From an uncultured bacterium (lineage in GTDB: Bacteria; Arandabacterota; Arandabacteria; JAGLYR01), in the NCBI GenBank assembly GCA_964610505.1, contig CAZSXU010000007.1, positions 3,594-67,593 of the forward strand: 64,000 bases of DNA, read 5' to 3'. The translations under genes were made by a program, and so were the position numbers. The notes under the pieces were generated by a model. It was not told the origin of the DNA, did not search any database, and saw nothing but the letters and a program-made list of their open reading frames with translations. Shown in pieces: positions 3,750 to 61,673 of the stretch. Each line of letters begins with the position of its first letter. Positions within the stretch are counted from its first letter, which is position 1.

Positions 3750-3876
3750 CTGCAGAGAATAGACAATAGAAAATGGACAATAGATCCCGGAGAAGAGCGT
3801 CGGGAGAACGCACAGACCTGATGTCGCCTTGTCGCCCGGTCCCCTTGCGGCCAGGTCGCCTGGTCGCCGTGTCGAG

Positions 3877-10977: not shown

Positions 10978-11007
10978 TCTGCAGGAGGGGATTCCCGTCC
11001 CCGGAGG

Positions 11008-11652
11008 TTGACGTTGATCTGGCGAGTAAGGGGCAAGATCCTTGACAAAGGCCCGTCGCACCTGGTGGTCGACGTGGGGGGAATCGGTTTCCTGGTTCAC
11101 ACGCCGGTGAGCTCCTTCGATCGCTTCGGCGGCGAGGGAGATGACGTGGATCTCCTCACGTATCTCCATGTTCGCGAAGACGCCATGGATCTGTACGGAT
11201 TCGCGGAGGAGGGCCAGCGGCGGCTCTTCCGAATGCTGCTCGCCGTGTCGGGTATCGGTCCCCGATCGGCTCTGGGAATTCTCTCGGGCATGGGCACCGA
11301 GGCGCTGCAGACGGCCATTCTGGGCGCCGATGTGGCGACGCTCACTCGGATTCCGGGCGTTGGTCGCAAGACCGCGCAGCGGATCGTCGTGGAACTGAAG
11401 GGTCCCCTGTCGGAGGGGCCCGGAGCCGGGCTGTTCGCCGCCGGTGGCGAGGACGACCGCCTGGGAGGCGCCGTGGAGGCCCTTGTGGCCCTGGGGTTCC
11501 GCAGATCGGAAGCGTACCGTTCTGCAGCCAATGTCATTCGGGGCGGTGCGGATGTGTCCCTGGAAGAGGTTGTGAAGCAGGTGCTTGCGGATTCCATGGC
11601 AAGACCCCACAGTAGCACCGCAGGGGAAGCCAAAACCGAGGTTGGGAAATGA
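11008..11652 (+). CDS. ruvA: Holliday junction branch migration protein RuvA
   Basis: [16 protein letters not shown] motif and HhH domain ([11 protein letters not shown]). Confidence 0.85.
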
Positions 11653-14008: not shown

Positions 14009-14055
14009 GGGAGAGCGAGAGAGCGCGACGAATCACAAGACCCCCGTCTGCACCC

Positions 14056-14136
14056 CACGGTGCCGGCCACGGTGCTGGCCACGGCGCCGCCCACGGCACC
14101 GGCCACGGCGCCGCCCACGGCGCCGCCCACGGCGCA
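14056..14136. repeat. Tandem 12-nt repeat CACGG(T/C)GC(C/T)G(G/C)C, about 6.75 copies, in the queA-tgt intergenic region
   Basis: The period-12 repeat can be read directly in the sequence. Confidence 0.85.
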
Positions 14137-14186
14137 AGGCTCGGGCGGGGAACGGCAGAGGGCGGCCCATCCTGGAGGCGTGACGC

Positions 14187-29982: not shown

Positions 29983-30073
29983 CGAGTACGAGTTCGAGTA
30001 CGAAGTACGAGTACGGAAAGAGCGGCAGCATCGTACTCGTACTCGGCTTTTTTGCGGGACTCGTACTCGGGGA
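29983..30073. repeat. (GAGTAC)n hairpin element A: direct GAGTACGAG units plus an inverted CGTACTCGTACTCG arm
   Basis: GAGTACGAGTTCGAGTACGAAGTACGAGTACG, loop, GTACTCGTACTCG, GCTTTTTTG. Related to elements at 31824-31905 and 32384-32455. Confidence 0.85.
30001..30056 (+). terminator. Intrinsic-terminator-like hairpin (stem about 11-14 bp, 16-nt loop, followed by GCTTTTTTG) built from the TACGAG repeat
   Basis: Stem GTACGAGTACG pairs with CGTACTCGTAC, followed by a T6 run. Confidence 0.5.
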
Positions 30074-30083
30074 ACGACCGGTC

Positions 30084-31808: not shown

Positions 31809-31823
31809 TGCGAGCACAAAAGA

Positions 31824-31905
31824 CGAGTACGAGTACGGGTACGAGTGCGAGTACGGAAGCAGGCCGAATCGTACTCGTACTCAGCGTGAGCGGTACTCGT
31901 ACTCG
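31824..31905. repeat. (GAGTAC)n hairpin element B, immediately 3' of comM
   Basis: Left arm CGAGTACGAGTACG..CGAGTACG, loop, right arm CGTACTCGTACTC AGCGTGAGCG GTACTCGTACTCG. A further direct unit lies at 31963-31984. Confidence 0.85.
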
Positions 31906-32020
31906 TTCTCGAAGGTTTGGGGTTTCACTCCGCGGGGGGGTATTCACTGAGAACCGCGAGGACGAGTACGAAGTACGAGTACGAACAGAAGAAAAGGATC
32001 GCACTCGAAAGGATTGAGTC

Positions 32021-32368
32021 TTGTTCGACCACGAGAAGCTCGACGTCTATCGCGTCAGCATGGATTTCGTGAAGTGGGCCTATCGCTTGTGCAACAGGCT
32101 CAAAGGCGCTGATCGCAATGCCCGCGACCAGCTTTTGCGTGCCTCACAGTCGATCCCCCTGAACATTGCCGAAGGCAACGGAAAGCTTCCCTCACCGGAC
32201 CGGCAACGGTTTCTGCGAATCGCACTGGGTTCCGCGCTAGAATGTGCTGCGATCATTGACGTTCTTGCAGTTGGCGAGGCTATCGAAGACACGACAGCGG
32301 CGAGGGGCAGAGCGCTTCTTGTGCGGGTCGTTGCCATGCTGACGAAAATGACATCGCCCTCCAAGTGA
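32021..32368 (+). CDS. Four-helix-bundle protein (23S rRNA intervening-sequence protein family, TIGR02436-like)
   Basis: 115 aa with the pattern ...YR....F..W...L...L.....R.Q..RA..SI..NIAEG.G.....D...FL.IA.GS..E characteristic of the family. Confidence 0.8.
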   Translation: MFDHEKLDVYRVSMDFVKWAYRLCNRLKGADRNARDQLLRASQSIPLNIAEGNGKLPSPDRQRFLRIALGSALECAAIIDVLAVGEAIEDTTAARGRALLVRVVAMLTKMTSPSK

Positions 32369-32383: not shown

Positions 32384-32455
32384 CGAGTTCGAGTACGAGT
32401 AGGAGTGAGAAGCGGGGAATTATACTCGTACTCAGCGATAGCGGTACTCGTACTC
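32384..32455. repeat. (GAGTAC)n hairpin element C, immediately 3' of the four-helix-bundle gene
   Basis: CGAGTTCGAGTACGAGTA, loop, CTCGTACTC AGCGATAGCG GTACTCGTACTCG GGGTTT. Confidence 0.85.
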
Positions 32456-32745
32456 GGGGTTTAGGATTGTGTTCTGTCCTGCCTTCGAGGAAGAAGGCGG
32501 TTTCACCGAGCGGCTGTACCGGGTACGGAGCCGGAGGCGCGGCGAATGAAGGATCCGGGCACAGCCCAGCGCGTTCACTCCACCTGTCTGGTTTGTCCCA
32601 CGCTCGCGGGGTTTCCCCGCGACGCGATCGAGAGCCACATTACCGTCCTCCGAATAACGGCGCGTACTGCCAAGGATTCGACCCATACAGACTGTCCGGT
32701 AAGGCCTGAAATCTCCATCTGAATCTGTGCACTTGACTTCGTGTA

Positions 32746-37377: not shown

Positions 37378-38301
37378 TCCTCCTAGGACCCTTCGTGAGC
37401 CTATGTCGGGCTGCTTCCCACATCAAGCGGGCGGCGGCCCGCGACCAGCAGATATCCGCCCCGGTCCCGCGGCCGACGTGCGTGTCCTGGCAGGTTGAGT
37501 CTGGGTCCGCGCCTCGGCGTCGTCGTCCTTCGGGTTTCTCTTCTCCCAAGACTGGAAGGCTTCGTACACCCCTCTGCGGTGACTGCCAGGTACAGCGGCA
37601 TCGCCTGTATCCTGTCCCTCGAGTGACCCCTGGCCCCGACGATCCCTGCGAAATAGAGGGTGCCCAGGACCAAGAAGAGGGTGTACAGCCTCCTCTGTCT
37701 GGAGTATGAGACCACCACGTATCCTTACGGAAACACATTCTCATTCTATATGAATACGCGTGGGTCGTAAAGCAGATTCGCCCCAATGAGCTACCCTAGG
37801 GAACCGGTCCAGTGGCTCTTACCCCGAAATGGACCTCTGACTCGCTCCGCTGCGAAAATCGTAGGGCGCAGTGTGACCTATGTCTTGGGGATGAACGTAA
37901 GCGAAGGGTCTCAGTCTGAGTCGTGGCGTGCCGTCTTGGGAGGCGGCCGAAGATCCCGATGCGTGGCGGAGCGAAACATAAACTCGATCTCGCCGTTTGG
38001 ACAGCGCACAGCCGGGGAATCTCGGCCGGCACGCGTCATCCCTCGAGACACGGTGATCCCGGCCTTCCGGCATCGCACTCTGCGCTCGGGGCGAACCGTA
38101 TCGGAACCTCCGGCCGCTGATGCCCGGTCGCCGTCGTTCCCTATGACCCACGCAACCTATTTATCCTTCCTCGGTCTACATAAATGAAGCCATAGCCGGA
38201 AGACCCGGGGCGATTCGGTTCTGGTCTGAGTGATGGGTCGAACAGCCTCCCCTCCGAAAGTACAGAACCCCTGTGAGCCAATCAGCCGAAAAGGAGACAT
38301 C

Positions 38302-39756
38302 ATGAAACGCTTGACTCTCACGTGGGCTCTAACGGTCTGTCTCGCCGCTTGCCATGTAGCATTCGCGGCGGGTGCCGAGGACGGGAAACGGCCGGCTTCC
38401 AAGAAGTTCGGGGAGTCTGTCTATCTGCTGGAAACATGGATCGAGTCGGTGCTCGATTTCGATCGCCTGCCGGGAATGTCCATCGCCGTCATCCACGATC
38501 AGGAGATTGTCTACACGAGAGGGTTCGGTTACGCGGATGTTGAGAGGGGCGTGAATGCGACGCCGAATACGCGCTACAGCATCTGCTCGATCTCCAAGCT
38601 GTTTACCAGTATTGCCATCATGCGGCTTCGCGATGAGGGGAAGCTGAGTCTGGATGATCCAGTGTCCAAACATCTACCCTGGTTTGCGCTGGAAACCGAG
38701 GATCCCAAGGCGCAGCCGCCGACGCTGGAGGATTTACTGCGGCACTCAAGCGGGCTGCCCTGCGAACCGGATTTGGCGACCTGGCCCGAATCCGATCTGC
38801 GCCGTCCGTCGCGCGAAGAACTCATCGAAGGAGTTTCGAAGCTGAAGGCGAGTTATCCCACCAACACGCAGTTCAACTACTCAAACCTGGGATTCTCTCT
38901 CCTCGGCGAGGTGGTGTCGGTGGTTTCAGGCATGGCGTATGAGGAATACGTGCACGAGAGCATCCTCGAGCCTCTTGGAATGGAGGCGACGACTCCGTAT
39001 CCACCCCGGAGTGTGCCGGGGAGGGAAGTGGCCGTCGGCTATGGGCGCTGGCCGCGAACGGGATCGCGCGCGGTAATATCACTTCCCGATGCACGGGCGA
39101 TGACTCCCGCAGGAGGTTTCGCCTCGACGGTGACGGACCTGGCGAAGTTTGCGATGTGGCAGTTCCGCGTCCTCGACGGGAAAGACGACGACGTCCTGGG
39201 CCAGGAAACGCTGGAGGAGATGCAGACCGTCCAGTGGCAGGATCCCGAGTGGGGCTACGGATTCACAGTCTGGTCCATGGGGGGCATGCACTTCGTCGGA
39301 CATCAGGGCGGCTGCCCTGGGTACAAGTCGCAGATCATCCTCTGCCCGGAAGAGAAGATCGCTGTGGTGGCGATGATCAACGCGACGGACGCGCCGCAGT
39401 TCACGCTAGTGTTGGAGACCTACAATATCATGGCGCCGGCTCTTAGGGCCTCGAGTAGCAGCGAGGAGGCGGACGAGTCGCAGGACTGGGCGAAATACAC
39501 CGGGTACTACACGGCCGACATGTCCTGGTCCGAGGCCGAGGTGGTGGTGTGGGACGGCGCCCTGTCGGTGATGTGGGTGCCGACGGGCAATCCTCTGGGC
39601 TCTCTGGTGAGATTGAAGCGCATCGAGGGAGGCATCTTCCGCCAGGTCGGAGGCGATGGGGCGCTTGGCAAGCACTACGTGTTCGGGACCGATGCCGAGA
39701 GCAACACCGTCTGCATGAAGTTCAATAACAACCTGCTCAGGAAGACGGTTCCCTGA
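38302..39756 (+). CDS. Secreted serine hydrolase, class C beta-lactamase / PBP-related family, with a C-terminal extra domain
   Basis: Signal peptide and S-x-x-K motif (CSISKLF). AAGGAG RBS before the ATG at 38302. Confidence 0.85.
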   Translation: MKRLTLTWALTVCLAACHVAFAAGAEDGKRPASKKFGESVYLLETWIESVLDFDRLPGMSIAVIHDQEIVYTRGFGYADVERGVNATPNTRYSICSISKLFTSIAIMRLRDEGKLSLDDPVSKHLPWFALETEDPKAQPPTLEDLLRHSSGLPCEPDLATWPESDLRRPSREELIEGVSKLKASYPTNTQFNYSNLGFSLLGEVVSVVSGMAYEEYVHESILEPLGMEATTPYPPRSVPGREVAVGYGRWPRTGSRAVISLPDARAMTPAGGFASTVTDLAKFAMWQFRVLDGKDDDVLGQETLEEMQTVQWQDPEWGYGFTVWSMGGMHFVGHQGGCPGYKSQIILCPEEKIAVVAMINATDAPQFTLVLETYNIMAPALRASSSSEEADESQDWAKYTGYYTADMSWSEAEVVVWDGALSVMWVPTGNPLGSLVRLKRIEGGIFRQVGGDGALGKHYVFGTDAESNTVCMKFNNNLLRKTVP

Positions 39757-43178: not shown

Positions 43179-43200
43179 ACGAACAGGTAGGGGAGAGCCC

Positions 43201-43821
43201 ATGGACCTGCGATCGTATGTGTTCCTCGACAGCATTCAACCCCAGTACGCCGCTTTCCTGGGAACGGTGGCGCAAGGATTCCTGCCCATCGCGAACATGG
43301 CGTCGCTCTACGTCGAGATCTCGCCGGGAATCGAGATCAATCGAATCACGGATATTGCGCTGAAATCCACGCGAGTGACGCCGGGGATGCAAGTGGTGGA
43401 GCGCCTCTACGGGTTGCTGGAAATTCACTCGGAATCGCAGGCGGACGTCCGGGAGGCCGGCCGGGCGATTCTTCAGGCGTTGAATCTCAAGGAAGAGGAT
43501 CGCTGGAAACCCAGGATTCTCTCCAGTCAAGTGGTCCGCCGGATGGATGATCATCAGACCCAGCTGATCAACCGGATGCGGCACGGGAATATGATCGTTC
43601 CCGGGGAGACGATGTACGTGATGGAAGTCGAGCCGGCCGCCTATGCCGCTCTGGCGGCGAATGAGGCGGAGAAGGCGGCCGAGATCAACATCCTTGAGGT
43701 TCGCGCGTTCGGCAGTTTCGGCCGCGTGTACCTCGGCGGTGAGGAGCGGGACATCGACGTCGGCTGGCGTGCGGCGGTCGGCGCAATCGAATCGGTAACC
43801 GGAAGGGTCGTGAAGAAGTAG
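43201..43821 (+). CDS. BMC shell protein, tandem-BMC-domain (BMC-T)
   Basis: Two BMC-like halves. The second is canonical ([39 protein letters not shown]). Confidence 0.7.
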
Positions 43822-43872
43822 AAGAGCAACGGGGCACGTTGAGAATCCACTATTCAAGGGAGGCAGTCGGCA

Positions 43873-44187
43873 ATGGCAGAAGCCCTTGGCATGATCGAGA
43901 CCCATAGCTATGCCGCCATGGTCGAAGCGGCGGACGCGATGGTGAAGGCGGCGAAGGTGGAGCTCGTTCATTATGAGAAGATCGGCGGGGGATACGTGAC
44001 GGCCATTATCCGAGGCGACGTGGCGGCCGTGAAGGCGGCCTGTGACGCCGGCCAGGCCAGTGCGTCCCGTGTCGGCGAGGTTGTCGCCGTTCATGTGATC
44101 GCGCGTCCGCATACGAACATCGATCTGGTGCTTCCGCTGGGCCGCCTCGACCAGGTTCGGGCGGAACTGAAGAAGACGACGAAGTAG
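43873..44187 (+). CDS. BMC shell hexamer protein (BMC-H, PduA/EutM-like)
   Basis: [29 protein letters not shown]...[19 protein letters not shown] is canonical BMC-H. Confidence 0.9.
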
Positions 44188-44281
44188 GCCGGTCGCGCCT
44201 GCTGGAGAAGACCGGCCGCGGGGGGAGAGGCGCGTTGAATTGCGCTGCGTCTCACCGACCCCGGAAGGTTGAGGAGTTGCC

Positions 44282-44569
44282 ATGGTTCTGGCCAAAGTGG
44301 TCGGCACGGTTGTCGCCTCGCGCAAAGAGAAGAGCACGGAAGGACTCCGCTTCATGGTCCTCGAGCAGATCGACCTCGACGGCAAGCCCTCGGGAGGGTT
44401 TGTCGTAGCGGCCGACGCCGTGGGGTCGGGTGTGGGTGAAATGGTGCTCTATGCCTCGGGAAGCTCGGCGCGGCAGACTGTAGCGACGGACAAACGTCCG
44501 TGCGACGCGGTGATCATGGCCATTGTCGACCAGTGGGAAGTCGGCGGCAAGACAAAGTACAAGAAGTAG
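44282..44569 (+). CDS. BMC vertex pentamer (BMC-P, EutN/CcmL/PduN family)
   Basis: [13 protein letters not shown]...[19 protein letters not shown] motif. Confidence 0.85.
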
Positions 44570-44738
44570 CCCGGACAATCCATGGAACCCTGCTGCGAGC
44601 AAGACAGGACGAGCCTGAACTGCGTTTCGGAAGCGATTTCGATCCTCGACGGAGCCGGGCTACGCAATCGGCGAAGTCCTATGTAGGCTTGGGGAGCTTC
44701 TGCCATAGGTAGTGTTGGGGTTTGGCGTTGGAGAATTC

Positions 44739-46184
44739 ATGTCTGTGACGTTGTCGGAAGGGCAGATTCGGGAGATCGCACGGCGGGTTGTGGAGTCGCT
44801 GGGAAGATCCGGTGCGCCGCCGACCGCCGCCGGGGCGGCCGCACCCGCGGGAGCCCTGGCCGAAGGCGTGTTTGCGGATGTCGATTCGGCCGCGCGCGCG
44901 GCCGCCGAAGCCCAGCGTTCGCTGGTGGCGATGACCATGTCCCAGCGGGACAAGATCGTTTCCCGAATTCGGCAGGTGATGCTGGATCATGCCGAGGCCC
45001 TGGCGGGTGAGGCTCTGGCGGAGACGGGGCTTGGTCGCCTGGACGACAAAACGGGAAAGAACCGGCTCGTTGCGGAGAAAACTCCGGGGACGGAAGCTCT
45101 TTATCCGACGGCCCGAAGCGGAGATCGAGGGCTGTCGTTGTTCGAACCGGCTCCCTACGGCGTCATCGGGGTCATCACGCCCGTAACCAATCCTACGTCG
45201 ACCATCATCTGCAACACGATCGGAATGGTGGCGGCGGGCAACGGCGTGGTCTTGAACGTCCATCCCTCGGCTAAGACGGTCTCGATCCGAACGGTGAACC
45301 TCATCAACCAGGCCATCCGGGAGGCCGGTGGGCCTTCCAACGTGGTTACCACTCTGGCCGAGCCGACGATCGAATCGGCCCAAGAGCTGATGAAGCATCC
45401 GGGCATCCGTCTCCTGGTCGTGACCGGCGGAGCCGCCGTCGTCAAGGTAGCGATGCAGAGCGGCAAGCGGGCGATCTGCGCGGGCCCCGGGAATCCTCCC
45501 GTGGTCGTGGATGAGACGGCGGATCCGGACCAGGCGGGCCGCGACATTGTCCGAGGCGCATCCTTCGACAACAACATCGTGTGTGTCTGCGAGAAAGAGA
45601 TTCTCGCCGTGGACTCCGTGGCCGACGCCCTCCTGAAATCCATAGGACGTCAGGGAGGGGTTGTCCTCACGGGGGTCCAGCTTCGCCAGATCGAGCGGGT
45701 GCTCTTCCCGCACGACAGGACGCCCGGAAGGCCGGCGGCGGTTGAGAAATCACTCATCGGCAGGGACGCGGGCGTCATCCTCTCCAAGATCGGAGTGAAC
45801 GCGGGGCCGCAAGTCCGGCTGGCCGTGGTGGAAACCGACGCCCAGCATCCTCTGGTGTGGACGGAACAGATGCTTCCCGTCATGCCTCTGGTGAGGGTGA
45901 GAAGCGCCGATGAGGGGATCGACCTGGCTCGGCGCGTCGAGCAGGGCATGAGGCACACGGCCGTGATGCACTCGAAGAATCTGGATCATCTGAGCCGGAT
46001 GGCCAAGGTGATGGACTGCAGCATCTTCGTGAAGAACGGCCCCGCAGTGGCGGGATTGGGTTTCGGGGGTGAGGGCTACTCATCCTTCTCCATCGCGTCG
46101 CCGACGGGAGAGGGGTTGACGGGCCCGAGGCAGTTCTCCAGGGAACGGCGGTGCGTTCTGGTCGATCACTTCAGGATCGTGTGA
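44739..46184 (+). CDS. Acylating aldehyde dehydrogenase (PduP/EutE-like) with an N-terminal encapsulation-peptide-like helix
   Basis: Aldehyde dehydrogenase family core. N-terminus MSVTLSEGQIREIARRVVESL followed by an Ala/Pro-rich linker. GGAG RBS before the ATG at 44739. Confidence 0.9.
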   Translation: MSVTLSEGQIREIARRVVESLGRSGAPPTAAGAAAPAGALAEGVFADVDSAARAAAEAQRSLVAMTMSQRDKIVSRIRQVMLDHAEALAGEALAETGLGRLDDKTGKNRLVAEKTPGTEALYPTARSGDRGLSLFEPAPYGVIGVITPVTNPTSTIICNTIGMVAAGNGVVLNVHPSAKTVSIRTVNLINQAIREAGGPSNVVTTLAEPTIESAQELMKHPGIRLLVVTGGAAVVKVAMQSGKRAICAGPGNPPVVVDETADPDQAGRDIVRGASFDNNIVCVCEKEILAVDSVADALLKSIGRQGGVVLTGVQLRQIERVLFPHDRTPGRPAAVEKSLIGRDAGVILSKIGVNAGPQVRLAVVETDAQHPLVWTEQMLPVMPLVRVRSADEGIDLARRVEQGMRHTAVMHSKNLDHLSRMAKVMDCSIFVKNGPAVAGLGFGGEGYSSFSIASPTGEGLTGPRQFSRERRCVLVDHFRIV

Positions 46185-46807
46185 TGGAACATCCAGCGCT
46201 TGCACTCGTGGAACTGAACAGTATCGCCGCCGGGGCCAGAACGGCGGACGCGATGGCCAAGAAGGCCCCCGTCGAGATCCTGCGTGTGGGGACAATTCAT
46301 CGCGGCAAGTACTTGATCCTGATCGAGGGTAGCGTAGGGGCGGTTGAGGAGTCCTTCGCCGAGGGTCTTCGGGTGGGGGGGGAATCCGTCGTCGATAAGG
46401 TCTTTCTGCCGGAGGTCGATCGGACGGTTCGGGACGCGCTTCTGGGGAATCGACAGACGGGCACGTACGATGCCTTGGGAGTGGTCGAGACCGCCAACGT
46501 GGCGGCCGTGATCGAAGCGGCCGATGGGGGGGTTAAGGGCGCCGACGTCAAGGTGATGGAAGTACGCCTGGGCGATGGGATGGGAGGCAAGGGTCTCGTT
46601 TTCTTCACGGGCAAGGTTCACGATGTAGAGGCCGCCGTGGACATCGCCGTCGAGCGAATCCGGGATCGGCAGACCTGGGTCCAGCAAACGGTCATCCCGA
46701 TTCTTCACGAAGACATGGCGCGGCAGGTGGCGGAATCGACTCGCTTCGGGCCGCGGCGGAGTTCGGGCGGCAGAGCAGCGAGACGGCGGGGCAGCGGAGC
46801 CGATTGA
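46184..46807 (+). CDS. BMC shell protein, tandem BMC domains (PduT-like BMC-T) with an Arg-rich C-terminal tail
   Basis: Two BMC domains (ALALVELNSIAAG..., ALGVVETANVAAVIEAAD...). The start overlaps the AldDH stop (TGATG). Confidence 0.8.
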   Translation: MEHPALALVELNSIAAGARTADAMAKKAPVEILRVGTIHRGKYLILIEGSVGAVEESFAEGLRVGGESVVDKVFLPEVDRTVRDALLGNRQTGTYDALGVVETANVAAVIEAADGGVKGADVKVMEVRLGDGMGGKGLVFFTGKVHDVEAAVDIAVERIRDRQTWVQQTVIPILHEDMARQVAESTRFGPRRSSGGRAARRRGSGAD

Positions 46808-46880
46808 GCGTGTGCACACTCTGCGGTCCCAGGATTGCCGCTCCGCGCTTCTGACGGATGGAACCGGAAGGTGGAATCGA

Positions 46881-47168
46881 ATGCGTCTGGGCCGGGTTAT
46901 TGGGACCGTCGTTCCCTGCGTTGTCTACGAAGGGCTAACGGGTGTTCCGATGCTCATCGTCACGCCGCTGGATAAACGGGGAAAGCCCAAGGGAACCCCC
47001 TTTGTGGCGGCGGATGCAACGCGCATGGCGGGCCCCGGTGAACTCATCTATTACGAAGCTTCTCGAGAAGCCGCCCTGGCGCTCGACCCGTGGTTCGTCC
47101 CTGTGGATCACGCGATCGTGGGCATCGTTGACGGTGTCGAGCGAGACGGCGTGGAGATCAAACCGTGA
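46881..47168 (+). CDS. BMC vertex pentamer (BMC-P), second copy
   Basis: MRLGRVIGTVV...LIVTPLD EutN/CcmL family. ATG at 46881. Confidence 0.8.
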   Translation: MRLGRVIGTVVPCVVYEGLTGVPMLIVTPLDKRGKPKGTPFVAADATRMAGPGELIYYEASREAALALDPWFVPVDHAIVGIVDGVERDGVEIKP

Positions 47169-47437
47169 TCCTCGGGATTGTCAAGGGGACCGTCTACTCG
47201 ACGATCAACCATCCCTTCTACGACAGCCGGCGACTGCTCCTGGTGGATCTCGTCAACCCGAACGGGAGCGAGACGGGAGGCTACCTCATCGCCATCGACT
47301 CGGTCGATGCAGGCGTAGGGGACCGCGTTCTCATGATCGACGAGGGGAATTCCGCTCGGCAGATCGTGGACGATCCGCAGGCTCCACTTCGGTCCATCAT
47401 CATCGGCATTGTGGACGACGTGCAGGTGTCGGCATGA
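47165..47437 (+). CDS. BMC vertex pentamer (BMC-P), third copy
   Basis: MILGIVKGTVYST...GGYLIAIDSVDAGVGDRVL. GTG start overlaps the previous stop. Confidence 0.8.
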   Translation: MILGIVKGTVYSTINHPFYDSRRLLLVDLVNPNGSETGGYLIAIDSVDAGVGDRVLMIDEGNSARQIVDDPQAPLRSIIIGIVDDVQVSA

Positions 47438-47598
47438 GCCTCGTTCGTTGGAACACCAGGGGCGCAGCCGCAGATTGCACAGACCTCACAGCCAAGGGGA
47501 TCTTTCCGGGATGCACTCCCGTGCGTCCCGGGAAGACCCGGTAGCCTTCGCACGTTCTGTGGAATCTGTGTCATCTGTGGTGGGGGGTTCGCCTTCTC

Positions 47599-48303
47599 AT
47601 GAATGCCGCTTGGCACCTCAGGAAAGAGATCGTCGAGTTCGGGCGCAGGGTCTATGAGAAGAATCTCGTGGCTGCGACGGACGGGAACATCAGTGTCCGC
47701 ATCCTGGGGGATCGGCTCCTCATTACGCCGTCGGGATTCTGTCTGGGGGAGCTCAAACCTGAAGACCTGGTCTATGCCGACTTTGAAGGGAGGACACTCT
47801 CCGGGCGAAACGCCCCCTCCAGCGAGCTCCCAATGCACATTGCGGCGTACGAGGAAAGACCCGACGTTCACGCCATCATCCACGCCCACCCACCGGTGAC
47901 CACGGCGTTCACCGTGGCCGGCTACAATCTGGCTCAATGCGTGATTCCGGAGGTTGTCCTGATCTTCGGATGTATCCCCACCACAGAGTATGCAACGCCG
48001 TCATCGGAAGAAGGCCCTCGAGTCATCCGGTCTCTCATCCGGAAGCACGACGCGCTGATTCTCGATCGGCATGGATCCCTTACGGCGGGTTGCAGCTTGC
48101 GGGAGGCGTATCACAAGCTGGAGAAGGTGGAACACTGTGCACAGGTGACCTTGGCCGCTCGCCAGCTGGGTAACGTCAAGACTCTGACGGCGGATCAGGT
48201 AGAGCGTCTCGAAGAGGTCCGGAAGAAGATGGGGCTCGGAAACGGGTCGTCCCTCTGCAATCTCTGCGGAACGTGCGGAAAGTCCGGCCCGGACGATTCC
48301 TGA
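47599..48303 (+). CDS. Class II aldolase/adducin family protein (fuculose-/rhamnulose-phosphate aldolase-like)
   Basis: ATDGNISVR...HAHPP Zn-binding motifs. Confidence 0.85.
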   Translation: MNAAWHLRKEIVEFGRRVYEKNLVAATDGNISVRILGDRLLITPSGFCLGELKPEDLVYADFEGRTLSGRNAPSSELPMHIAAYEERPDVHAIIHAHPPVTTAFTVAGYNLAQCVIPEVVLIFGCIPTTEYATPSSEEGPRVIRSLIRKHDALILDRHGSLTAGCSLREAYHKLEKVEHCAQVTLAARQLGNVKTLTADQVERLEEVRKKMGLGNGSSLCNLCGTCGKSGPDDS

Positions 48304-48361
48304 ACCCGCGTTACTGAAGAGGGCCGGGGACCCCACGGGGGCCCGGGCGACAAAGAAAACG

Positions 48362-48394
48362 GAGCGGCCCTTGCGGGCCGCTCTCGGTGTTTTA
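48362..48394. terminator. Bidirectional intrinsic terminator (9-bp GC stem GAGCGGCCC/GGGCCGCTC flanked by A-run and T-run) after the BMC operon
   Basis: AAAGAAAAC GGAGCGGCCC ttgc GGGCCGCTC TCGGTGTTTT. Confidence 0.6.
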
Positions 48395-48398
48395 GGGC

Positions 48399-48545
48399 CC
48401 CGCAGTGCCGTGAGTCAACCTCGCGAAAATCCGCGCGTCAAGGGAGTTGAAGTCGGCCCGCGAAACCGATCACGAACACTGCAGGGAAACGGGGCGAACC
48501 GTATTCAGTTGTGTCTCTGCAGGGACGCAATCCGTATGCCAGCCG
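48399..48545. repeat. Conserved 145-nt module, copy C (divergent, with indels relative to copies A and B)
   Basis: Shares GCGCGTCAAGG..TTGAAGTCGGCCC.CGAA...CACGAACACTGCAGGGAA...GCGAACC.TATTCA.TTGTG...CAGGG.CGC...TGCCAG with 51125-51270 and 61222-61365. Confidence 0.8.
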
Positions 48546-48913
48546 AAGGGACAATGTGCCGGGGCGCTCGTGTTCGCGGAAATGCATCCCCCGGGACTGG
48601 CACCGGACGGCTTCACGGGGTATTCTTTGCGGTGTGTGGCCTGGATTGACATGAGCTGAGAAGTAGATTCGCGCTCGCATGGAGGGACGCGCTTCGGAGG
48701 AACCGGCGTTTCCTCACTTCCGGGGAGGGGAATCCCCCAGAGAGATGCCCCATGTGGGTGAAATTCCGCAGGTGGAGTAAGCGGTCCCGGCTGAAGCGAG
48801 ATACACGTCGAGCCGGTCGGGGGGGCGCCGGCCACGGCGACTTGGAATGGTTCTCCTTCACCATCCCGCTATGGACCGGGCTTTCCCGGTTCTGAATCTG
48901 CGTCGCGGGCTTC

Positions 48914-50605
48914 TCAACCGGTCGTCCGATCCGGAACCTGAAGCTTGCCGCTCATCCGCACGGCAATCTCTTTGTGAGCGGCCACGCATTCGCCGAGGAT
49001 CCTCGTCGCCTCCGCCTCGGTTTCCCGGACGAACCGGGGATCGTCGATCCCCGGTAGGTTGATCTTCACGTTGTAGTAGGCGCCCTCTGCGGCTGCGCGC
49101 CCGACCGATGCCGCGACGCCGCCGTCGCTGACCGAGCTCTCCATGCCTTGATCGACGACCTTCCCGGCCAGCTCCATGACCGCGGGAACGCGCCTGAGAA
49201 TCGTGAGCGGCACGAGTGTAGCGTTCCGAGTGGCCTCTTGAATGGCCGCCTCTCGAGCCGCCTTCTCGTCGTCTGTCTTCTTGGGCAATCTCCGGGCCGC
49301 CATGAACTGGTTGAAGGCATGCGTGTCCTGGTTGACCAGGGAGAGGAACTCATCCTTGGCGGCCTGCGCCTCCTCTGCAATCGACGCCATCGCGCCTCGA
49401 AGCCGGACGTAGTCTTTGTTGCCGTGCGTGAGATGAGCCACCATCGACGTGAGCGAGGCGGCCAGCGACCCGGCGAGCGCGGCCACGGACCCTCCTCCGG
49501 GCGCGGGAGAATCCGTGGACAGCTCATCCATGAAATCGGAGACGGGCATCACCGTGAGGTTGACGTCGCCCGCGAACTGGTACTCGATGATCTTCTTCTG
49601 CGGTTCGAAAGGAGTGATCTCACTCATTCCCAGGGATCGCACGGCGATCTTGATCAACTCCTTCTCGGGCACGGCCGGGCACTTGCCCTGCTTGTCGAGG
49701 TAGTACCGTCCGGCCATGAGCATGGCCTCCTTGGGAATGAGGCCCACCAGCTCCGATCCCGTGACCCGCAGGCCGCGCTCGTTGGCTTGCCGGCAAACCT
49801 CTTCGAAGGCTGCGTGGGGCGGCGTCACGTGATAGTTGGTCAGGTTCATGGAGACCTGCGCCGTCTCGAAAGTGTCGAGATACCAGCCTCCGGCCTTGCA
49901 GAACTGGAGTGCGCCGGGGACCTTGACGGCTTTGCCGTCCTTGTCCCGGATGATCTTGCCGGCGCCGTCGCGCTTCGCCCGTCCCTGCTCCCGAATGCTC
50001 AGCGCGATGTCGCGCGCCAACCTCGGATCTCTCGTGTTGAGGTTGATGTTATAGGCAATCAGGAACTCCCGGGCGCCGATCACCGTTGCTCCCGAGCGGG
50101 CGTTGAACACGGGCTCTCCATAGTCCGGGGCCCAGTGAGGGTCCTTGAGTTTCTCCGCCAGCCCTTCGTATTCGCCCTGGCGGATGACGGCAAGGTTCTG
50201 CCGATCCGGCTTCTGCGCCGCGTTCTCATAAAGATAAACCGGAATGGACAGATGCTCGCTGACCCTTTCGGCCAGGCGGTGCGCCATTTCTATGCAGTCG
50301 TCCATGGTCACCCCGGTTACGGGAACGAACGGGCAGACGTCGGTAGCCCCCATGCGAGCGTGCTCGCCGTGATGCCTGCTCATGTCGATGAGCTCGGCGG
50401 CCTTCCGGATGGCGTTGAAAGCGGCATCGACGACGCCCTCCGGTGTGCCGATGAACGTAACCACCGTCCGGTGGGTGTCGGGGCCGGGATCGACGTCCAG
50501 CAGTTTGACCCCCGGCGTATCCGCAATGGGTTTCGTGACGGCGTCGATCACCGCTCGATCTCTGCCCTCGCTGAAATTCGGCACGCACTCGACCAGCTTC
50601 AACAT
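48914..50605 (-). CDS. ftcD: Glutamate formimidoyltransferase / formimidoyltetrahydrofolate cyclodeaminase (bifunctional FtcD-like)
   Basis: N-terminus MLKLVECVPNFSEGRD (formiminotransferase) plus a C-terminal cyclodeaminase domain. Start at 50605; the ORF-track extension to 50830 translates the repeat. Confidence 0.85.
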   Translation of the reverse strand: MLKLVECVPNFSEGRDRAVIDAVTKPIADTPGVKLLDVDPGPDTHRTVVTFIGTPEGVVDAAFNAIRKAAELIDMSRHHGEHARMGATDVCPFVPVTGVTMDDCIEMAHRLAERVSEHLSIPVYLYENAAQKPDRQNLAVIRQGEYEGLAEKLKDPHWAPDYGEPVFNARSGATVIGAREFLIAYNINLNTRDPRLARDIALSIREQGRAKRDGAGKIIRDKDGKAVKVPGALQFCKAGGWYLDTFETAQVSMNLTNYHVTPPHAAFEEVCRQANERGLRVTGSELVGLIPKEAMLMAGRYYLDKQGKCPAVPEKELIKIAVRSLGMSEITPFEPQKKIIEYQFAGDVNLTVMPVSDFMDELSTDSPAPGGGSVAALAGSLAASLTSMVAHLTHGNKDYVRLRGAMASIAEEAQAAKDEFLSLVNQDTHAFNQFMAARRLPKKTDDEKAAREAAIQEATRNATLVPLTILRRVPAVMELAGKVVDQGMESSVSDGGVAASVGRAAAEGAYYNVKINLPGIDDPRFVRETEAEATRILGECVAAHKEIAVRMSGKLQVPDRTTG

Positions 50606-50683
50606 GATGGAGATTACCCTCCTGTGCTCTGGAAAACGGCCGGCACGCAGGGAATTCCGAGGCCGGCGCAGGCTCTGCGGAAG

Positions 50684-51124
50684 GAAGAATAGCGCATTGG
50701 ACAAGAATAGACAATAGACAATGAATGGAAATAGAGAGGTCGGCGGGTTGATATAGAGAAGCGGAGAAGCGGACCGCATTGGAGGAGAATAGACAATAGA
50801 CCGAAATGGTGAAGTCGTCAGGTTCTCCACGACGCCTTTTTCCAGGATCTATTGTCTATTTTCTATTGTCTGCTTCACCATTTCTCTGGGGAACCTAAAC
50901 AGAAAATGGGAGCCAAGTGGCTCCCGAGGTCCGAGGGAAGCGAGGAGAGATTTGAGGATTGGAGGAGAATAGACAATAGACCGAAATGGTGAAGTCGTCA
51001 GGTTCTCCACGACGCCTTTTTCCAGGATCTATTGTCTATTTTCTATTGTCTGCTTCACCATTTCTCTGGGGAACCTAAACAAGAACAGGGAGCCTCATTG
51101 GCTCCCTGTTCTTGTTTAGGTTCC
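50684..51124. repeat. Complex intergenic repeat: AATAGAC iterons, a 180-bp unit in two tandem copies (50781-50960 and 50961-51140, 122 nt identical), and a truncated plus an intact long palindrome
   Basis: GGAGGAGAATAGACAATAGACCGAAATGGTGAAG...TCTATTGTCTATTTTCTATTGTCTGCTTCACCATTTC...GGAACCTAAACA is repeated. A related copy lies at 60952-61167. Confidence 0.85.
51070..51124. terminator. Perfect 25-bp-arm palindrome (GGAACCTAAACAAGAACAGGGAGCC tcatt GGCTCCCTGTTCTTGTTTAGGTTCC): GC stem with flanking A- and T-tracts, like a bidirectional terminator
   Basis: Read directly. The sister palindrome at 61168-61221 has different inner-arm bases that are perfectly compensated. Confidence 0.5.
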
Positions 51125-51270
51125 CCGCATGTGCCGTGTCAGAATTCGTGTCAAGCCTGCGCGTCAAGGTTTTTGAAGTCGGCCCACGAATCAGATTCAC
51201 GAACACTGCAGGGAAGTCGGGGGCGAACCATATTCAATTGTGCTCTCTACCTATTGCAGGGCGCGTGCCA
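51125..51270. repeat. Conserved 145-nt module, copy A
   Basis: Near-identical to 61222-61365 over about 120 nt. Not coding: copies differ by frame-breaking indels. Confidence 0.85.
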
Positions 51271-51553
51271 GGAATGCCGGCGTCCGGCCGTGAAGGCCGT
51301 TTGCGGTTTGGGTGAATTCCTCGTTCGCGTTTACAGAGAGAAGTCGGTCGTGAAATGGGCGATTCTTGACTTTCCTCAAACCTGTCGGAACGCCTTCCGG
51401 TGGGGCGCAGGACGCCATCTCCGGGGACGAACGGTATCCGCCGCCGGTGGGAAATGGAAAAAAGGCCCGGAAGAGCCGGGAAAGTGGGGGAGATGACCCG
51501 ACCGGCCACTCTCGGCTGCGAAACCCGCCTCGTGCCTGTTGCGTAGGAGGGCC

Positions 51554-52303
51554 ATGTCTGTTAGTGTGTTGCGCGGCGCGCAAGGAAAGGACGAATACGG
51601 CTTGATACGAACCGTGGATCTCTGCAGGTACTATGGGAGCGGCCCTCAGGAAGTACGGGCGGTGGATCGTGTGAATTTCGCCGTGGAGCAGGGTGGATTC
51701 CTGGGAATCGTGGGGGCCTCCGGATCGGGGAAGTCGACGCTTCTGAATCTCCTGGCGGGGCTGGACTCCCCGACGGCGGGCCGGGTCGAAATCGATGGCA
51801 CGGCGTTGAGCGATCTCACGCGAAGAAACCTTGCAGCCTACCGAGCACGCCGCGTCGGCATCGTTTTCCAGTCTTTCAATCTGATGCCCCATTACACGGC
51901 CGCGGAGAACGTGGAGCTGGCCCTCTACTTCACCGACATCGCCAAAGGGGAACGCCGCTCGCGCTCCCGCGACATCCTGGCCCGCCTGGGGCTCAGGGAT
52001 CGCCTGACGCATCGGCCCGCCGACCTTTCCGGCGGAGAGCAGCAGAGGGTGGCTCTTGCCCGCGCTCTGGTCAAGGAGCCTCACGTTCTCTTCGCGGACG
52101 AACCGACGGGGAACCTGGACCGGAAGAACTCCGAGGACATCGCCGGTCTTCTGACCGAGCTGAATGGGGAGGGGCTCACCATCGTCCTGGCCACCCACGA
52201 CCTCGATATGGCGCGTGTCTGCGCCCACCGCATGGTGCAGATGGAGTACGGGCGGTTGGCGGAAGGCACGGCCGATTCTCAAGGGCCGGGAGACCGTCGA
52301 TGA
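51554..52303 (+). CDS. ABC transporter ATP-binding protein (MacB/LolD type)
   Basis: Walker A GASGSGKST, signature LSGGEQQRVALARAL and Walker B. The start is uncertain; candidates are 51539, 51554 and 51602. Confidence 0.8.
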   Translation: MSVSVLRGAQGKDEYGLIRTVDLCRYYGSGPQEVRAVDRVNFAVEQGGFLGIVGASGSGKSTLLNLLAGLDSPTAGRVEIDGTALSDLTRRNLAAYRARRVGIVFQSFNLMPHYTAAENVELALYFTDIAKGERRSRSRDILARLGLRDRLTHRPADLSGGEQQRVALARALVKEPHVLFADEPTGNLDRKNSEDIAGLLTELNGEGLTIVLATHDLDMARVCAHRMVQMEYGRLAEGTADSQGPGDRR

Positions 52304-58711: not shown

Positions 58712-59814
58712 AGCGCGTGCTGGCGGTGGCGCGCAAGGAAACGTATCACATTCTCCGTGATCCGCGGAGTCTCGCCGTGGCCGTGGTCATGCCCATAATG
58801 ATGGTATTGTTGTTTGGATACGCCATCAACATGGATCTGGCAAACGTACCGGTCGGGATTCTGGATCAGGACCGGAGTCCGGCGAGCGCCGATTTCATCA
58901 CGAGGATGACGTCCGGCGACTTCATTCTGGAGGTCGCGCGCCTGGGCGCCCGGGACGAAGTGGAACCCGGATTTCGCAGGGGATTGTTCCGGGCGGTGCT
59001 GGTGATTCCTCAAGGTTTCGGCGAACGCCTGGTGTCGGAACCACTGTCGGAGATCCAGATTCTCATCGACGGGGCGGATGCGACGACGGCGGCCGCCGTG
59101 GACAACTATCTCAAGGCCGTGGTGGGGATGGTGAATCTGGATCTCATGGTGAGGCAGGGGAACGCTCGATTCCGGTCTCAGGAACTCCGTTCCCGTGTCC
59201 TGTTCAATCCGGAACTCGAAAGCTCCCACTTCGTCGTCCCGGGTTTGGTGGCGGTGGTCCTGATCATGATCTGTGCGCTCCTGACCAGCATTGCGATCAC
59301 ACGGGAAAAAGAAACCGGGACGATGGAGCAGGTTCTCACGACACCGCTGGCTCCCCGTCAGCTGGTTCTCGGAAAGGTCCTGCCCTACCTCGTCATCGCG
59401 TCGGTGGACGCCGCGCTGGTTCTGGCCGTGGGTAACCTGATCTTCGGTGTGCCCATGCGGGGCTCCTGGTGGCTGCTGGCCGGGTACAGCCTGATCTATC
59501 TTCTCATCGCGCTGGCGCTGGGGCTGTTGATCTCCGCCGTTACGAAGACGCAGCGGGTGGCGATGATGATCGCGCTGGTGACCACTCTGCTCCCAACGCT
59601 GATCCTCTCCGGGTTCGTGTTTCCTCTGGCCAGCATGCCGCTTCCGTTGCGAATGATCGGCCGGATCATTCCAGCCACCTACTTTCTGGAAGTCATCCGG
59701 GGTATTATGTTGAAGGGGAGGATGTGGTTCCCCGTCCAGGGTGGGGTCATGCTGGGAATGGCGGTCCTTCTCCTGGGCATGGCGGGCCGGCGCTTTCGAA
59801 CGAGACTGGAGTAA
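58708..59814 (+). CDS. ABC-2 type transporter permease (YbhS/YbhR-like)
   Basis: Six TM helices. ABC-2 family N-terminus (KE..HILRDPRSL). Confidence 0.85.
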   Translation: MKRVLAVARKETYHILRDPRSLAVAVVMPIMMVLLFGYAINMDLANVPVGILDQDRSPASADFITRMTSGDFILEVARLGARDEVEPGFRRGLFRAVLVIPQGFGERLVSEPLSEIQILIDGADATTAAAVDNYLKAVVGMVNLDLMVRQGNARFRSQELRSRVLFNPELESSHFVVPGLVAVVLIMICALLTSIAITREKETGTMEQVLTTPLAPRQLVLGKVLPYLVIASVDAALVLAVGNLIFGVPMRGSWWLLAGYSLIYLLIALALGLLISAVTKTQRVAMMIALVTTLLPTLILSGFVFPLASMPLPLRMIGRIIPATYFLEVIRGIMLKGRMWFPVQGGVMLGMAVLLLGMAGRRFRTRLE

Positions 59815-59819
59815 ATCGC

Positions 59820-60950
59820 GTGGTCCGCTCGGTTCTCTATCTGGTGCAGAAGGAATTCCGGCAGGTCTTTCGCGACCGGACACTGCTTCGGGTGATTCTG
59901 ATTGTCCCGATCGTGCAGATCTTCGTTCTGGGATACGCGGCGAACACGGATCTCAAGAACGTCCGGCTCTCCGTACTGGATCAGGATTCGAGCCGCGACA
60001 GCCGCTCCCTGGCCGATGCATACTACGCCTCCGACGTGTTTATCCCGGGCCCGCGCGCGTCGTCCCCGGCGGAGCTCCAGAATCTTCTTCTGGAAGGACA
60101 AACGGATGTCGGGTTGTGGATTCCGAGGGGGTACGCAGCGACGTTGCTGACGAGTGACGCCGTCGCCGTCTCTATGACATTCAACGGTCAGAACAGCAGC
60201 GCCGCCGGCCGGAGTGTAGGCTACGCAAGCGAGATCGCCCTTCAGGAAGTCGGTCGGTACCTGGAGTCGGCGGCCCTCGCGCAACCCGACCTTGCACGCC
60301 GGGCCCGGCGGATTGAATCGTCCTCCCGCTTCTTCTATAACCCCGAACTGCGAAGCCAGCACTATATGGTGCCGGGGATCGTGGTCCTCCTGATCACGAT
60401 CATCTCCGCCCTGCTGACGGGCGTGGCGGTGGTGAGGGAGCGGGAGATCGGCACGTTGGAGCAGCTGATGGTGAGTCCTCTCACGCCCGGCCAGTTGATT
60501 GCGGGGAAGACCATCCCGTTTGCCCTCATTGCTTTCTTCGAGTTGACCTTCGCAACGACGGTAGCCGTGCTCTGGTTCAGGCTTCCCCTCGAAGGGTCCG
60601 TGCTGCTCCTCGGTGTTGCGGCCGCGATCTACCTGAATGTAACCCTGGGCGTTGGACTGCTGGCGTCCACGGTCTCGTCCACGCAGCAGCAGGCGATGTT
60701 CACGATGTGGTTCTTCCTGGTGTTCGGGATTCTGATGAGCGGATTCTTCTACCCGATTGAGAACATGCCGCGCGAAGTTCAGTGGCTGACCTACCTGAAT
60801 CCGCTGCGGTACATGATGAGTATGGTCCGCGGGATCTTCCTCCGAGGATCGGGCGTGGTGGATCTCGCACCCGACCTTGCCCGGCTGGCCATCATTGGAG
60901 TCGTGACCTTCGCCGGCGCGGCGCTGAGGTTCCAGAAGAGACTTGGGTAG
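59820..60950 (+). CDS. ABC-2 type transporter permease, second copy
   Basis: Paralog of the previous permease (LVQKEFRQVFRDRTLL). GTG start assumed at 59820. The upstream part of ORF 59469 overlaps the previous gene in another frame. Confidence 0.75.
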   Translation: MVRSVLYLVQKEFRQVFRDRTLLRVILIVPIVQIFVLGYAANTDLKNVRLSVLDQDSSRDSRSLADAYYASDVFIPGPRASSPAELQNLLLEGQTDVGLWIPRGYAATLLTSDAVAVSMTFNGQNSSAAGRSVGYASEIALQEVGRYLESAALAQPDLARRARRIESSSRFFYNPELRSQHYMVPGIVVLLITIISALLTGVAVVREREIGTLEQLMVSPLTPGQLIAGKTIPFALIAFFELTFATTVAVLWFRLPLEGSVLLLGVAAAIYLNVTLGVGLLASTVSSTQQQAMFTMWFFLVFGILMSGFFYPIENMPREVQWLTYLNPLRYMMSMVRGIFLRGSGVVDLAPDLARLAIIGVVTFAGAALRFQKRLG

Positions 60951-60951
60951 G

Positions 60952-61167
60952 GCATTGGACGAAAATAGACAATAGACAATAGACCGAAATGGTGAAGTCG
61001 TCAGGTTCTCCACGATGCCTTTTTCCAGGATCGGGGGGGACGTGGAAAGGACCCATTGCGATAGAGAAGCAGAGAAGCGGACCGAAACGGAAGGGGCTGA
61101 GTGGTTGTCCATGATGCGGTTGTCCGCATCTGTTTCTCTGTTTCTCGGCTTCTCCGTTTCTCTGCGG
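60952..61167. repeat. Complex intergenic repeat, right-hand copy (AATAGAC iterons x3, GAAATGGTGAAGTCGTCAGGTTCTCCACGATGCCTTTTTCC, GAGAAGC shuffled inverted motifs)
   Basis: Related to 50684-51124 and in the same orientation. Confidence 0.85.
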
Positions 61168-61221
61168 GGAACCTAAACAGAAAATGGGAGCCAAGTGGCT
61201 CCCATTTTCTGTTTAGGTTCC
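61168..61221. terminator. Perfect 25-bp-arm palindrome (GGAACCTAAACAGAAAATGGGAGCC aagt GGCTCCCATTTTCTGTTTAGGTTCC)
   Basis: Read directly from the sequence. Confidence 0.5.
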
Positions 61222-61365
61222 CCGCATGTGCCGTGTCAGAATTCGTGTCAAGCCTGCGCGTCAAGGTTTTTGAAGTCGGCCCACGAATCAGATTCACGAA
61301 CACTGCAGGGAAGTCGGGGGCGAACCATATTCAATTGTGATCTCCACCCATTGCAGGGCGCGTGC
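61222..61365. repeat. Conserved 145-nt module, copy B
   Basis: Near-identical to 51125-51270. Confidence 0.85.
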
Positions 61366-61673
61366 CAGAAGACGTGGGTCGGGAGAAAAAGTGAACGCGG
61401 TGCCATCCCGTGAATGTGAGTTCACAGGGAGACGCCCTGTAGGAGCGCGTGAGGGGCATTCGTGAGAGTCAGAAATGTCGAACGTAATGTGGCAAGACCG
61501 AGAGTTTGGAACCCAGCTACGGGCCGACAAGGGAGCGATCTGAGCCAACTCCCCCAGATCCTGTCTCGGAAGCGGGTCAGATCCCTCAATCGGGCACCGT
61601 TGTCTTCCCTGTAGGAGGGGATTCCTATCCCCGGTGCTTGAATCCGGTCCCGTCCGCTGGTAACGTCTGGCTG

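Follow-up and report, generated by a model that had tools for sequence, protein, structure and literature searches.

Paralogous small-RNA gene candidates with sigma-54-type promoters and a partly 6S-like hairpin in uncultured Eisenbacteria-like bacteria

The window analysed here, a 64,000-nt stretch of DNA from an uncultured bacterium, contains three homologous modules, A, B and C, which start at positions 48399, 51125 and 61222. They had been pointed out at these coordinates in an earlier, sequence-only reading, and this was readily confirmed: the 19-mer TTCCCTGCAGTGTTCGTGA matches the minus strand exactly at 48470-48488, 51197-51215 and 61294-61312, i.e. three times where 0.01 occurrences are expected by chance, and all conserved blocks that had been listed are present. 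A and B had been described as near-identical and C as the deviating copy; in fact B and C are identical at 143 of 146 positions (97.9%), and A is the divergent one, with ~73% identity to B or C and short indels of 1-2 nt. These indels between paralogues are real, in line with the earlier argument that broken reading frames make the module non-coding; we likewise rejected a coding reading of the 26-codon ORF of B, as its AUG start codon is ACG in A. The three differences between B and C all fall between the promoter -12 element and the conserved 5' tail described below. The homology had been traced into the adjacent hairpin, which holds for B and C but falls short of its true extent, as it continues past the terminator into the downstream repeats (51001-51271 versus 61103-61368, 87%). 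At the other end, the homology among the copies ends exactly at a sigma-54-type promoter on the minus strand, and that of C with B stops at the upstream edge of the C promoter. Copy C arose from B by a recent duplication and was inserted between an ABC-2 permease gene and a flavin reductase gene that are adjacent to each other in one of the related genomes (L042).

Among the neighbouring genes is an FTCD gene (glutamate formiminotransferase/formimino-THF cyclodeaminase; 48914-50605, minus strand, with a start codon and the Pfam domains FTCD_N, FTCD and FTCD_C), which is flanked by copies B and A; a matching arrangement is present in the related loci L042, L045, L041 and L048. Downstream of B, on the same strand, come ~460 nt of other repeats and then FTCD. 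Copy A is convergent with a class II aldolase gene (47599-48303, plus strand, Pfam) and copy C with the ABC-2 permease gene (59469-60950, plus strand, Pfam). The aldolase gene also closes a bacterial microcompartment locus with BMC and aldehyde dehydrogenase domains (~43200-48303), at the end of which copy A or its counterpart is always found. Syntenic microcompartment loci in L042 and L045 additionally carry EutN and DeoC/RpiB genes; the locus, which is conserved in the relatives, resembles the sugar-phosphate/aldehyde type of Planctomycetes and Verrucomicrobia.

On the minus strand, each copy carries a sigma-54 (RpoN)-type -24/-12 promoter, TGGCAY-N5-YTGCR. The pattern TGGCAYNNNNNYTGCR has only three matches in the 64 kb (expected 0.18; none of 100 shuffles reached three), and these lie at 48541-48526, 51270-51255 and 61367-61352, the upstream edge of each copy. 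The promoter of A reads TGGCATACGGATTGCG (-24 GG/-12 GC; 48526-48541, minus strand) with a predicted start near 48515; those of B (51255-51270, minus strand) and C (61352-61367, minus strand) both read TGGCACGCGCCCTGCA, with predicted starts near 51244 and 61341. In all three window copies the -24 GG and the -12 GC are exactly 10 nt apart in TGGCAC-N5-TTGCW, and TGGCA(C/T)-N5-NTGC(A/G) is found at the equivalent position in every one of the ten distinct copies that we collected from five genomes (see below). Comparison of these ten promoters showed that the 5-nt spacer is variable and the DNA upstream unconserved. A sigma-70 scan of the region containing A and B (48200-51600) returned no promoter-like site on either strand.

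We assume that sigma-54 is present in the host organism; a search for GAFTGA and RpoN-box motifs found neither rpoN nor an enhancer-binding protein in the ~250 kb of related DNA covered. An activator site common to all copies was not found either, and no upstream k-mer exceeded shuffled controls. The sequence GGAATT occurs exactly 50 nt upstream of TGGCAC in three FTCD-side copies only, namely window B (51320, minus strand), L042a (~9608, as GGAATTCC) and L045 (~2011), where it could be an activator or IHF site or residual orthology. It is missing from copy C, whose duplication boundary coincides with the promoter edge; since C thus lost the upstream region of B in the duplication, it may not be activated. 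Further upstream of the sRNA B promoter, by ~200 nt, we noted a terminator-like hairpin (CCCGGCTCTTCCGGG + CCTTTTTTCC; 51466-51480, minus strand), which sits within the 5' region of a divergent ABC-transporter gene; in L045, L048a, L048b and L042b, CAYTTTCCCCGG-like stretches precede the promoter by 205-225 nt. A further motif, (C)TG(C/T)AGGAGGGGATTCC-N3-CCCCGG, recurs at 10979-11011 (plus strand), 61609-61641 (plus strand) and 48717-48745 (minus strand). The first two of these sites are located just upstream of likely gene starts (flavin reductase in the case of 61609), the third ~200 nt upstream of the sRNA A promoter. The motif may be bound by a protein or form a small hairpin with a regulatory role.

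The predicted RNA consists of a 5' tail, one large hairpin and a terminator. The tail, with the consensus ACAAYUGAAUAYGGUUCGCCCC (ACAACUGAAUACGGUUCGCCCCC), begins 2-4 nt past the predicted start and ~12 nt past the -12 GC. It occupies 48491-48512 in A (ACAACUGAAUACGGUUCGCCCC) and 51219-51241 in B (ACAAUUGAAUAUGGUUCGCCCCC), and the C tail (61316-61338) is identical to that of B, all on the minus strand. The tail lies outside the consensus structure and in no conserved helix, i.e. it is predicted to be single-stranded, and that of A is marked as a candidate seed. In the ten-sequence alignment A5 it is near-invariant in seven copies, diverged in L042a and L055, and absent from L048b. The main hairpin that follows is imperfect and 89-94 nt long across the family. 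In A it spans 89 nt (48398-48486, minus strand; 106.8 bits with R1, a covariance model built from the family), with CCCUGCAGUGUUCGUG/CACGGCACUGCGGGG as its 6S-like closing stem, followed by a middle stem and by the conserved apical region GGGCCGACUUCAA...CCUUGACGCGC; in B it spans 91 nt (51123-51213, minus strand; 143.9 bits), and the hairpin of C (61220-61310, minus strand; 144.4 bits) is identical to that of B. For the window copies the closing stem can be written as CCCUGCAGUGUUCGUG/CACGGCAC(A)UGCGGGG, and the sequence-conserved apical region of ~22-25 nt as GGGCCGACUUCAA-N3-6-CCUUGACGCGC (GACUUCAA..CCUUGACGCGC).

That each module abuts a hairpin had been noticed before, and a hairpin with a U-tract is indeed present at all three. 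The module had been read on the plus strand, as something that follows a terminator, but it is the minus strand that is functional, and there the hairpin is the RNA's own 3' terminator. The terminator scan placed that of A (GAGCGGCCCGCAAGGGCCGCUC + CGUUUUCUUU), which is bidirectional, at 48352-48383. The terminator of B (51068-51126) is a perfect 27-bp palindrome with a GC-rich core at 51086-51108 and a U-tract at 51072-51085, and that of C (61163-61226) a perfect 31-bp palindrome with a U-tract at 61170-61183, again on the minus strand in each case; the full-length fold of copy B has a z of -8.2. The palindromic terminators of A and C are common to the convergent plus-strand genes, aldolase and ABC-2 permease, respectively. 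A GC hairpin followed by a U-rich run is found in each family copy, the U-tract being weak in L045 and L048b. L055 (4600-4765, minus strand) is without a separate terminator hairpin; here the main 6S-like hairpin is directly followed by UUUUUUCUUU, and probably itself terminates transcription.

The hairpin is moderately supported by covariation, one of the checks proposed at the outset. A5 comprises the ten sequences in a model-guided alignment, and 95.3% of its cells are standard pairs, compared with 34-46% if the 3' partners are slid by 1-3 columns. Compensatory changes are found at six pairs (e.g. A-U/G-C/C-G at columns 49-132), with both the closing and the middle stem covarying, and none of 500 shuffles reached the observed covariation score. 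Because the alignment was fitted to the model and contains just ten sequences, the support is only moderate. Each of the nine copies examined folds better as the sense than as the antisense strand, the gain being 2.5-12.8 kcal/mol; the main hairpins of A and B, for example, fold at -44.6 and -37.1 kcal/mol versus -33.7 and -27.9 kcal/mol for the antisense. In addition, if the opposite strand were the RNA, the invariant U-G pairs at A5 columns 46-135 and 53-127 would turn into C-A mismatches. The better folding together with these U-G pairs identifies the minus strand as functional. A plus-strand RNA was rejected in view of its weaker fold and the missing sigma-70 promoter-like site in 48200-51600.

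Further copies, also called for originally, were indeed found: there are ten distinct copies in five related metagenomic genomes whose closest named relative is Candidatus Eisenbacteria, and all ten retain promoter, hairpin and terminator. An exact 19-mer scan of 185,579 species genomes gave one true homologue, a Candidatus Eisenbacteria MAG (L009); most of the other matches were canonical 6S RNAs containing the 19-mer, and two in Methylocystis seem to be unrelated. Scanning JGI metagenomes with the apical-loop pattern yielded 31 loci, 30 of them chance matches in unrelated sequence and one the window itself; a metagenome contig identical to the window (L016) ends inside copy C. We reached further relatives by synteny, using FTCD homologues with 74-80% identity and one aldolase homologue, which led to four more genomes, and nhmmer together with R1 located the unit in each of the four. 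No family copy was detected beside the more distant homologues in L051-L054 (FTCD ~66% identity, Coatesbacteria-like) and L057 (aldolase 68%) or at the loci of two further relatives (L058 and L059), which indicates a narrow family. The copies fall into a lineage beside FTCD (window B and C, L042a, L045, L048a and L041) and a second one between FTCD's neighbour and the aldolase gene (window A, L042b, L048b and L055); these two old paralogue lineages flank the FTCD gene. Positions are syntenic across the five genomes, which speaks against mobility. FTCD serves here only as a synteny anchor for the sRNA family. Of the ten copies, six (A, C, L042b, L048a, L048b and L055) have a convergent and not a co-oriented gene downstream, and for the FTCD-side copy of L048 this gene is FTCD itself. 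These six thus combine the features of a stand-alone unit, i.e. its own promoter, its own intrinsic terminator and no co-oriented downstream gene.

On these grounds we consider it probable that the three modules are paralogous sRNA genes of ~160-170 nt on the minus strand, transcribed from a sigma-54-type promoter and acting in trans. Of the options that had been offered for the module, a structured sRNA family is the one supported: promoter, covarying hairpin and terminator all lie on a single strand and are conserved throughout the ten copies of the five genomes. As at least six copies lack a co-oriented downstream gene, the family is, in its genomic arrangement, a stand-alone small RNA and neither a leader nor a mobile element. 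The main rival of base-pairing as its mode of action is binding of RNA polymerase through the 6S-like stem. The RNA would then be a 6S-derived half-molecule that does not base-pair with targets and that occupies or modulates the polymerase whenever the sigma-54 activator is on; we hold this to be unlikely, although the resemblance on which it builds is real. The proposed Rfam scan gave nothing for any copy at the gathering thresholds (Rfam 15), but its top sub-threshold match was 6S RNA (RF00013) for all three copies, with 32.4 bits for A and 37.4 bits for B and C (E = 5.2e-4 at whole-window scale for the latter score) against a gathering threshold of 46.4 bits. Matches to miRNA and PYLIS obtained in E-value mode were discarded as artefacts of the perfect terminator palindromes. 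The closing stem, with the conserved GUUCG/CGGC core of 6S, is near-identical to that of 6S RNA (UUCCCUGCAGUGUUCGUGA ... ACGGCA(C)AUGCGGGG), GGGCCGA/CAGGCUUGA of the adjoining internal stem corresponds in the alignment to GAGCCGA/CAGGUUCAA of the 6S consensus, and the long imperfect duplex is a common trait as well; in 6S RNA these two stems are part of the polymerase-bound duplex. Several 6S RNAs that score above the threshold, with 48-72 bits (L001, L002, L006 and L007, from Vicinamibacterales and a deltaproteobacterium), have exactly the 19-mer UUCCCUGCAGUGUUCGUGA as their 5' end, their 3' ends ACGGCAAUGCGGGG match too, and R1 weakly finds these 6S RNAs from end to end (17-18 bits). Moreover, 9 of the 15 closing-stem pairs never vary, which is beyond what pairing requires, and the locus adjoins a folate-enzyme gene; in E. 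coli, ssrS is followed by the gene for 5-formyl-THF cyclo-ligase. Its place beside FTCD may, however, be mere synteny, and the score remains below the threshold of 46.4. The alignment to RF00013 covers the closing and internal stems, but 81 of the 187 model positions are deleted and replaced by 4 nt, and these are the central bubble and the terminal stem, the very part that mimics an open promoter. With ~90 nt and an apical region of ~22 nt, the hairpin is only half as long as a 6S RNA (160-200 nt with central bubble and terminal stem); the conserved single-stranded 5' tail and the sigma-54 promoter are features of the new family, not of 6S RNA, and so is the occurrence of 1-3 copies per examined locus or genome, with three in the window. 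Membership in 6S RNA was rejected for its score, the missing bubble and terminal stem, and its length. We take the resemblance as partial, and the family may derive from 6S or share its binding partner. A combination of both readings is rather unlikely: the family would be a 6S derivative in which the polymerase-binding closing and internal stems persist, the terminal stem and the open-promoter bubble have disappeared, and a sigma-54 promoter and a 5' seed are new, and it would be either a hybrid regulator or the only 6S-like RNA of these bacteria. Should the hybrid be true, an RNA made only when the sigma-54 activator fires would bind to mRNAs by pairing and also make contact with RNA polymerase.

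That the module could be cis-regulatory had also been suggested, and this fits only four of the ten copies, which lie upstream of FTCD and co-oriented with it. On this reading FTCD would be transcribed from the sigma-54 promoter; the hairpin would detect a ligand or protein as the sensor of a riboswitch-like or protein-dependent attenuator, with the terminator as expression platform, and the other copies would be orphaned duplicates. The unit does lie 140-460 nt upstream of FTCD in window B, L042a, L045 and L041, sigma-54/NtrC control of histidine and formimino-glutamate catabolism would be physiologically sensible, and the closing stem of B and C ends in a 3' GGGG that is also part of an extended terminator stem, so that two structures compete. 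This competition was seen only in B and C, however; the overlap is absent in A, L042a, L045, L048a and L041, and in the window ~460 nt of repeats separate the B terminator from FTCD. None of the copies matches an Rfam riboswitch. The convergent orientation of the L048 FTCD-side copy, of C and of all aldolase-side copies means that the unit cannot generally be an FTCD leader, and with six of ten copies lacking a co-oriented gene downstream we regard a leader as very improbable. An attenuating-leader or riboswitch class was rejected, with only four of the ten copies upstream of FTCD and competing helices restricted to B and C. The notion of a MITE or IS terminus has fared worse. Three copies within 13 kb, each beside a palindromic hairpin, B and C embedded among other intergenic repeats, and a metagenome contig that breaks inside C, as assemblies often do at repeats, are what might be expected of a mobile or selfish repeat (MITE, IS end or REP-like), or of a plus-strand repeat that belongs to a 3'-UTR or accompanies terminators and does not itself give rise to an RNA. 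Against this, the unit is bordered by neither terminal inverted repeats nor target-site duplications, only 1-3 copies occur per examined locus or genome, the 19-mer scan gave a single homologue and the apical-pattern scan the window only. The syntenic positions in five genomes, the gene-like conservation, with promoter hexamers around a variable spacer and covarying stems, and the poorer folding of the plus strand make such a repeat exceedingly unlikely.

If the modules are trans-acting sRNA genes, their transcription would require RpoN together with an enhancer-binding activator, and the RNA would be made only while the signal of this activator is present. The RNA would then act in trans, most likely by base-pairing with mRNAs via the 5' tail, while the hairpin, whose lower half nearly copies the 6S closing stem, could serve as a protein-binding or stabilising module. 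Base-pairing through the tail is favoured by its location at the very 5' end and its near-invariance in seven of ten copies; its divergence or absence in the remaining three weakens the idea of a universal seed. No conserved target site for the tail was found. Its complementarity to FTCD translation-initiation regions did not exceed background (z from -1.0 to +1.3), and in target prediction within the window the best duplex energies equalled those of shuffled seeds, with the exception of a 15-nt identity at 38088-38102. This site repeats, without a mismatch, the best-conserved stretch of the tail (minus strand ATACGGTTCGCCCCG, with the complementary sequence on the plus strand; ~0.02 expected by chance) and lies within an 830-nt gene-poor spacer, ~200 nt upstream of a beta-lactamase-family gene with its real start near 38302. 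Neither L058 nor L059 retains it in front of their orthologue of this beta-lactamase-family gene, and a 12-mer tail match in L059 was dismissed as it falls inside an unrelated coding sequence. The site could be a target, a relic or a chance match.

The family is previously uncatalogued; it is absent from Rfam and limited to a small number of Eisenbacteria-like bacteria, all of them uncultured. Candidatus Eisenbacteria lacks cultured representatives, we know of no regulatory RNA described for it, and our literature search found no paper naming both Eisenbacteria and sigma-54. For this group, the family offers an RNA that can be searched for with R1, along with a predicted input into its regulation, namely sigma-54 and an activator. 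The 6S-like stem raises the question whether 6S genes can be shortened and turned into condition-specific sRNAs or whether the stem is a general module for recognition by polymerase or another protein; if neither holds, the family would still be a clean case of sibling sRNAs outside the Proteobacteria. Apart from the Qrr RNAs, GlmY/GlmZ, CrcZ and NrsZ are sigma-54-dependent sRNAs. In its logic the family resembles the sigma-54-dependent sibling sRNAs Qrr1-5 of Vibrio, which depend on LuxO and sigma-54 (PMC13501541). The likeness lies in stand-alone genes bounded by a -24/-12 promoter and an intrinsic terminator, in the presence of several paralogues in one genome that have a conserved single-stranded segment in common, and in an expected dependence on an enhancer-binding activator. 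In contrast to Qrr1-5, the new RNAs come from a different, uncultured phylum, are longer (~165 nt) and dominated by one 90-nt hairpin, and there is no sequence or structural homology, with no Rfam match to Qrr or any other sRNA family. A second point of comparison are sRNAs derived from riboswitches or leaders, such as the trans-acting SreA/SreB of Listeria, in that some copies are terminated leaders upstream of a metabolic gene and others orphan units; the new family differs from them in that it lacks any known aptamer fold and that competition of the sensor hairpin with the terminator is not conserved.

The window also contains other repeats. Hairpin elements with arms of tandem heptamers (CGAGTAC/GTACTCG) are found at 29986-30075, 31823-31905, and 31960-32007 with 32385-32456. 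One of the heptamer-arm pairs encloses a 115-aa gene (32021-32368, plus strand) for a 23S rRNA intervening-sequence protein (PF05635, E = 2.7e-21), and the CGAGTAC elements look like a stem-loop cassette family with and without a four-helix-bundle gene. Elements of similar style built from other heptamers (AATAGAC; GAGAAGC/GAAACAG) occur at 50690-51066, 60948-61160 and, inverted, 3754-3802, the first two of them directly downstream of the sRNA B and C terminators; the element at 50690-51066 includes a 180-nt tandem duplication (50778-50914/50958-51094). In two such elements, which differ in sequence and have this architecture in common, the complementary segments are interleaved (a-b-loop-a'-b') rather than nested, and Rfam gave no match for the elements built from these other heptamers. 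Finally, at least seven tandem 12-nt units of GCCACGGYGCCG are present at 14042-14149 and may lie within a coding repeat.
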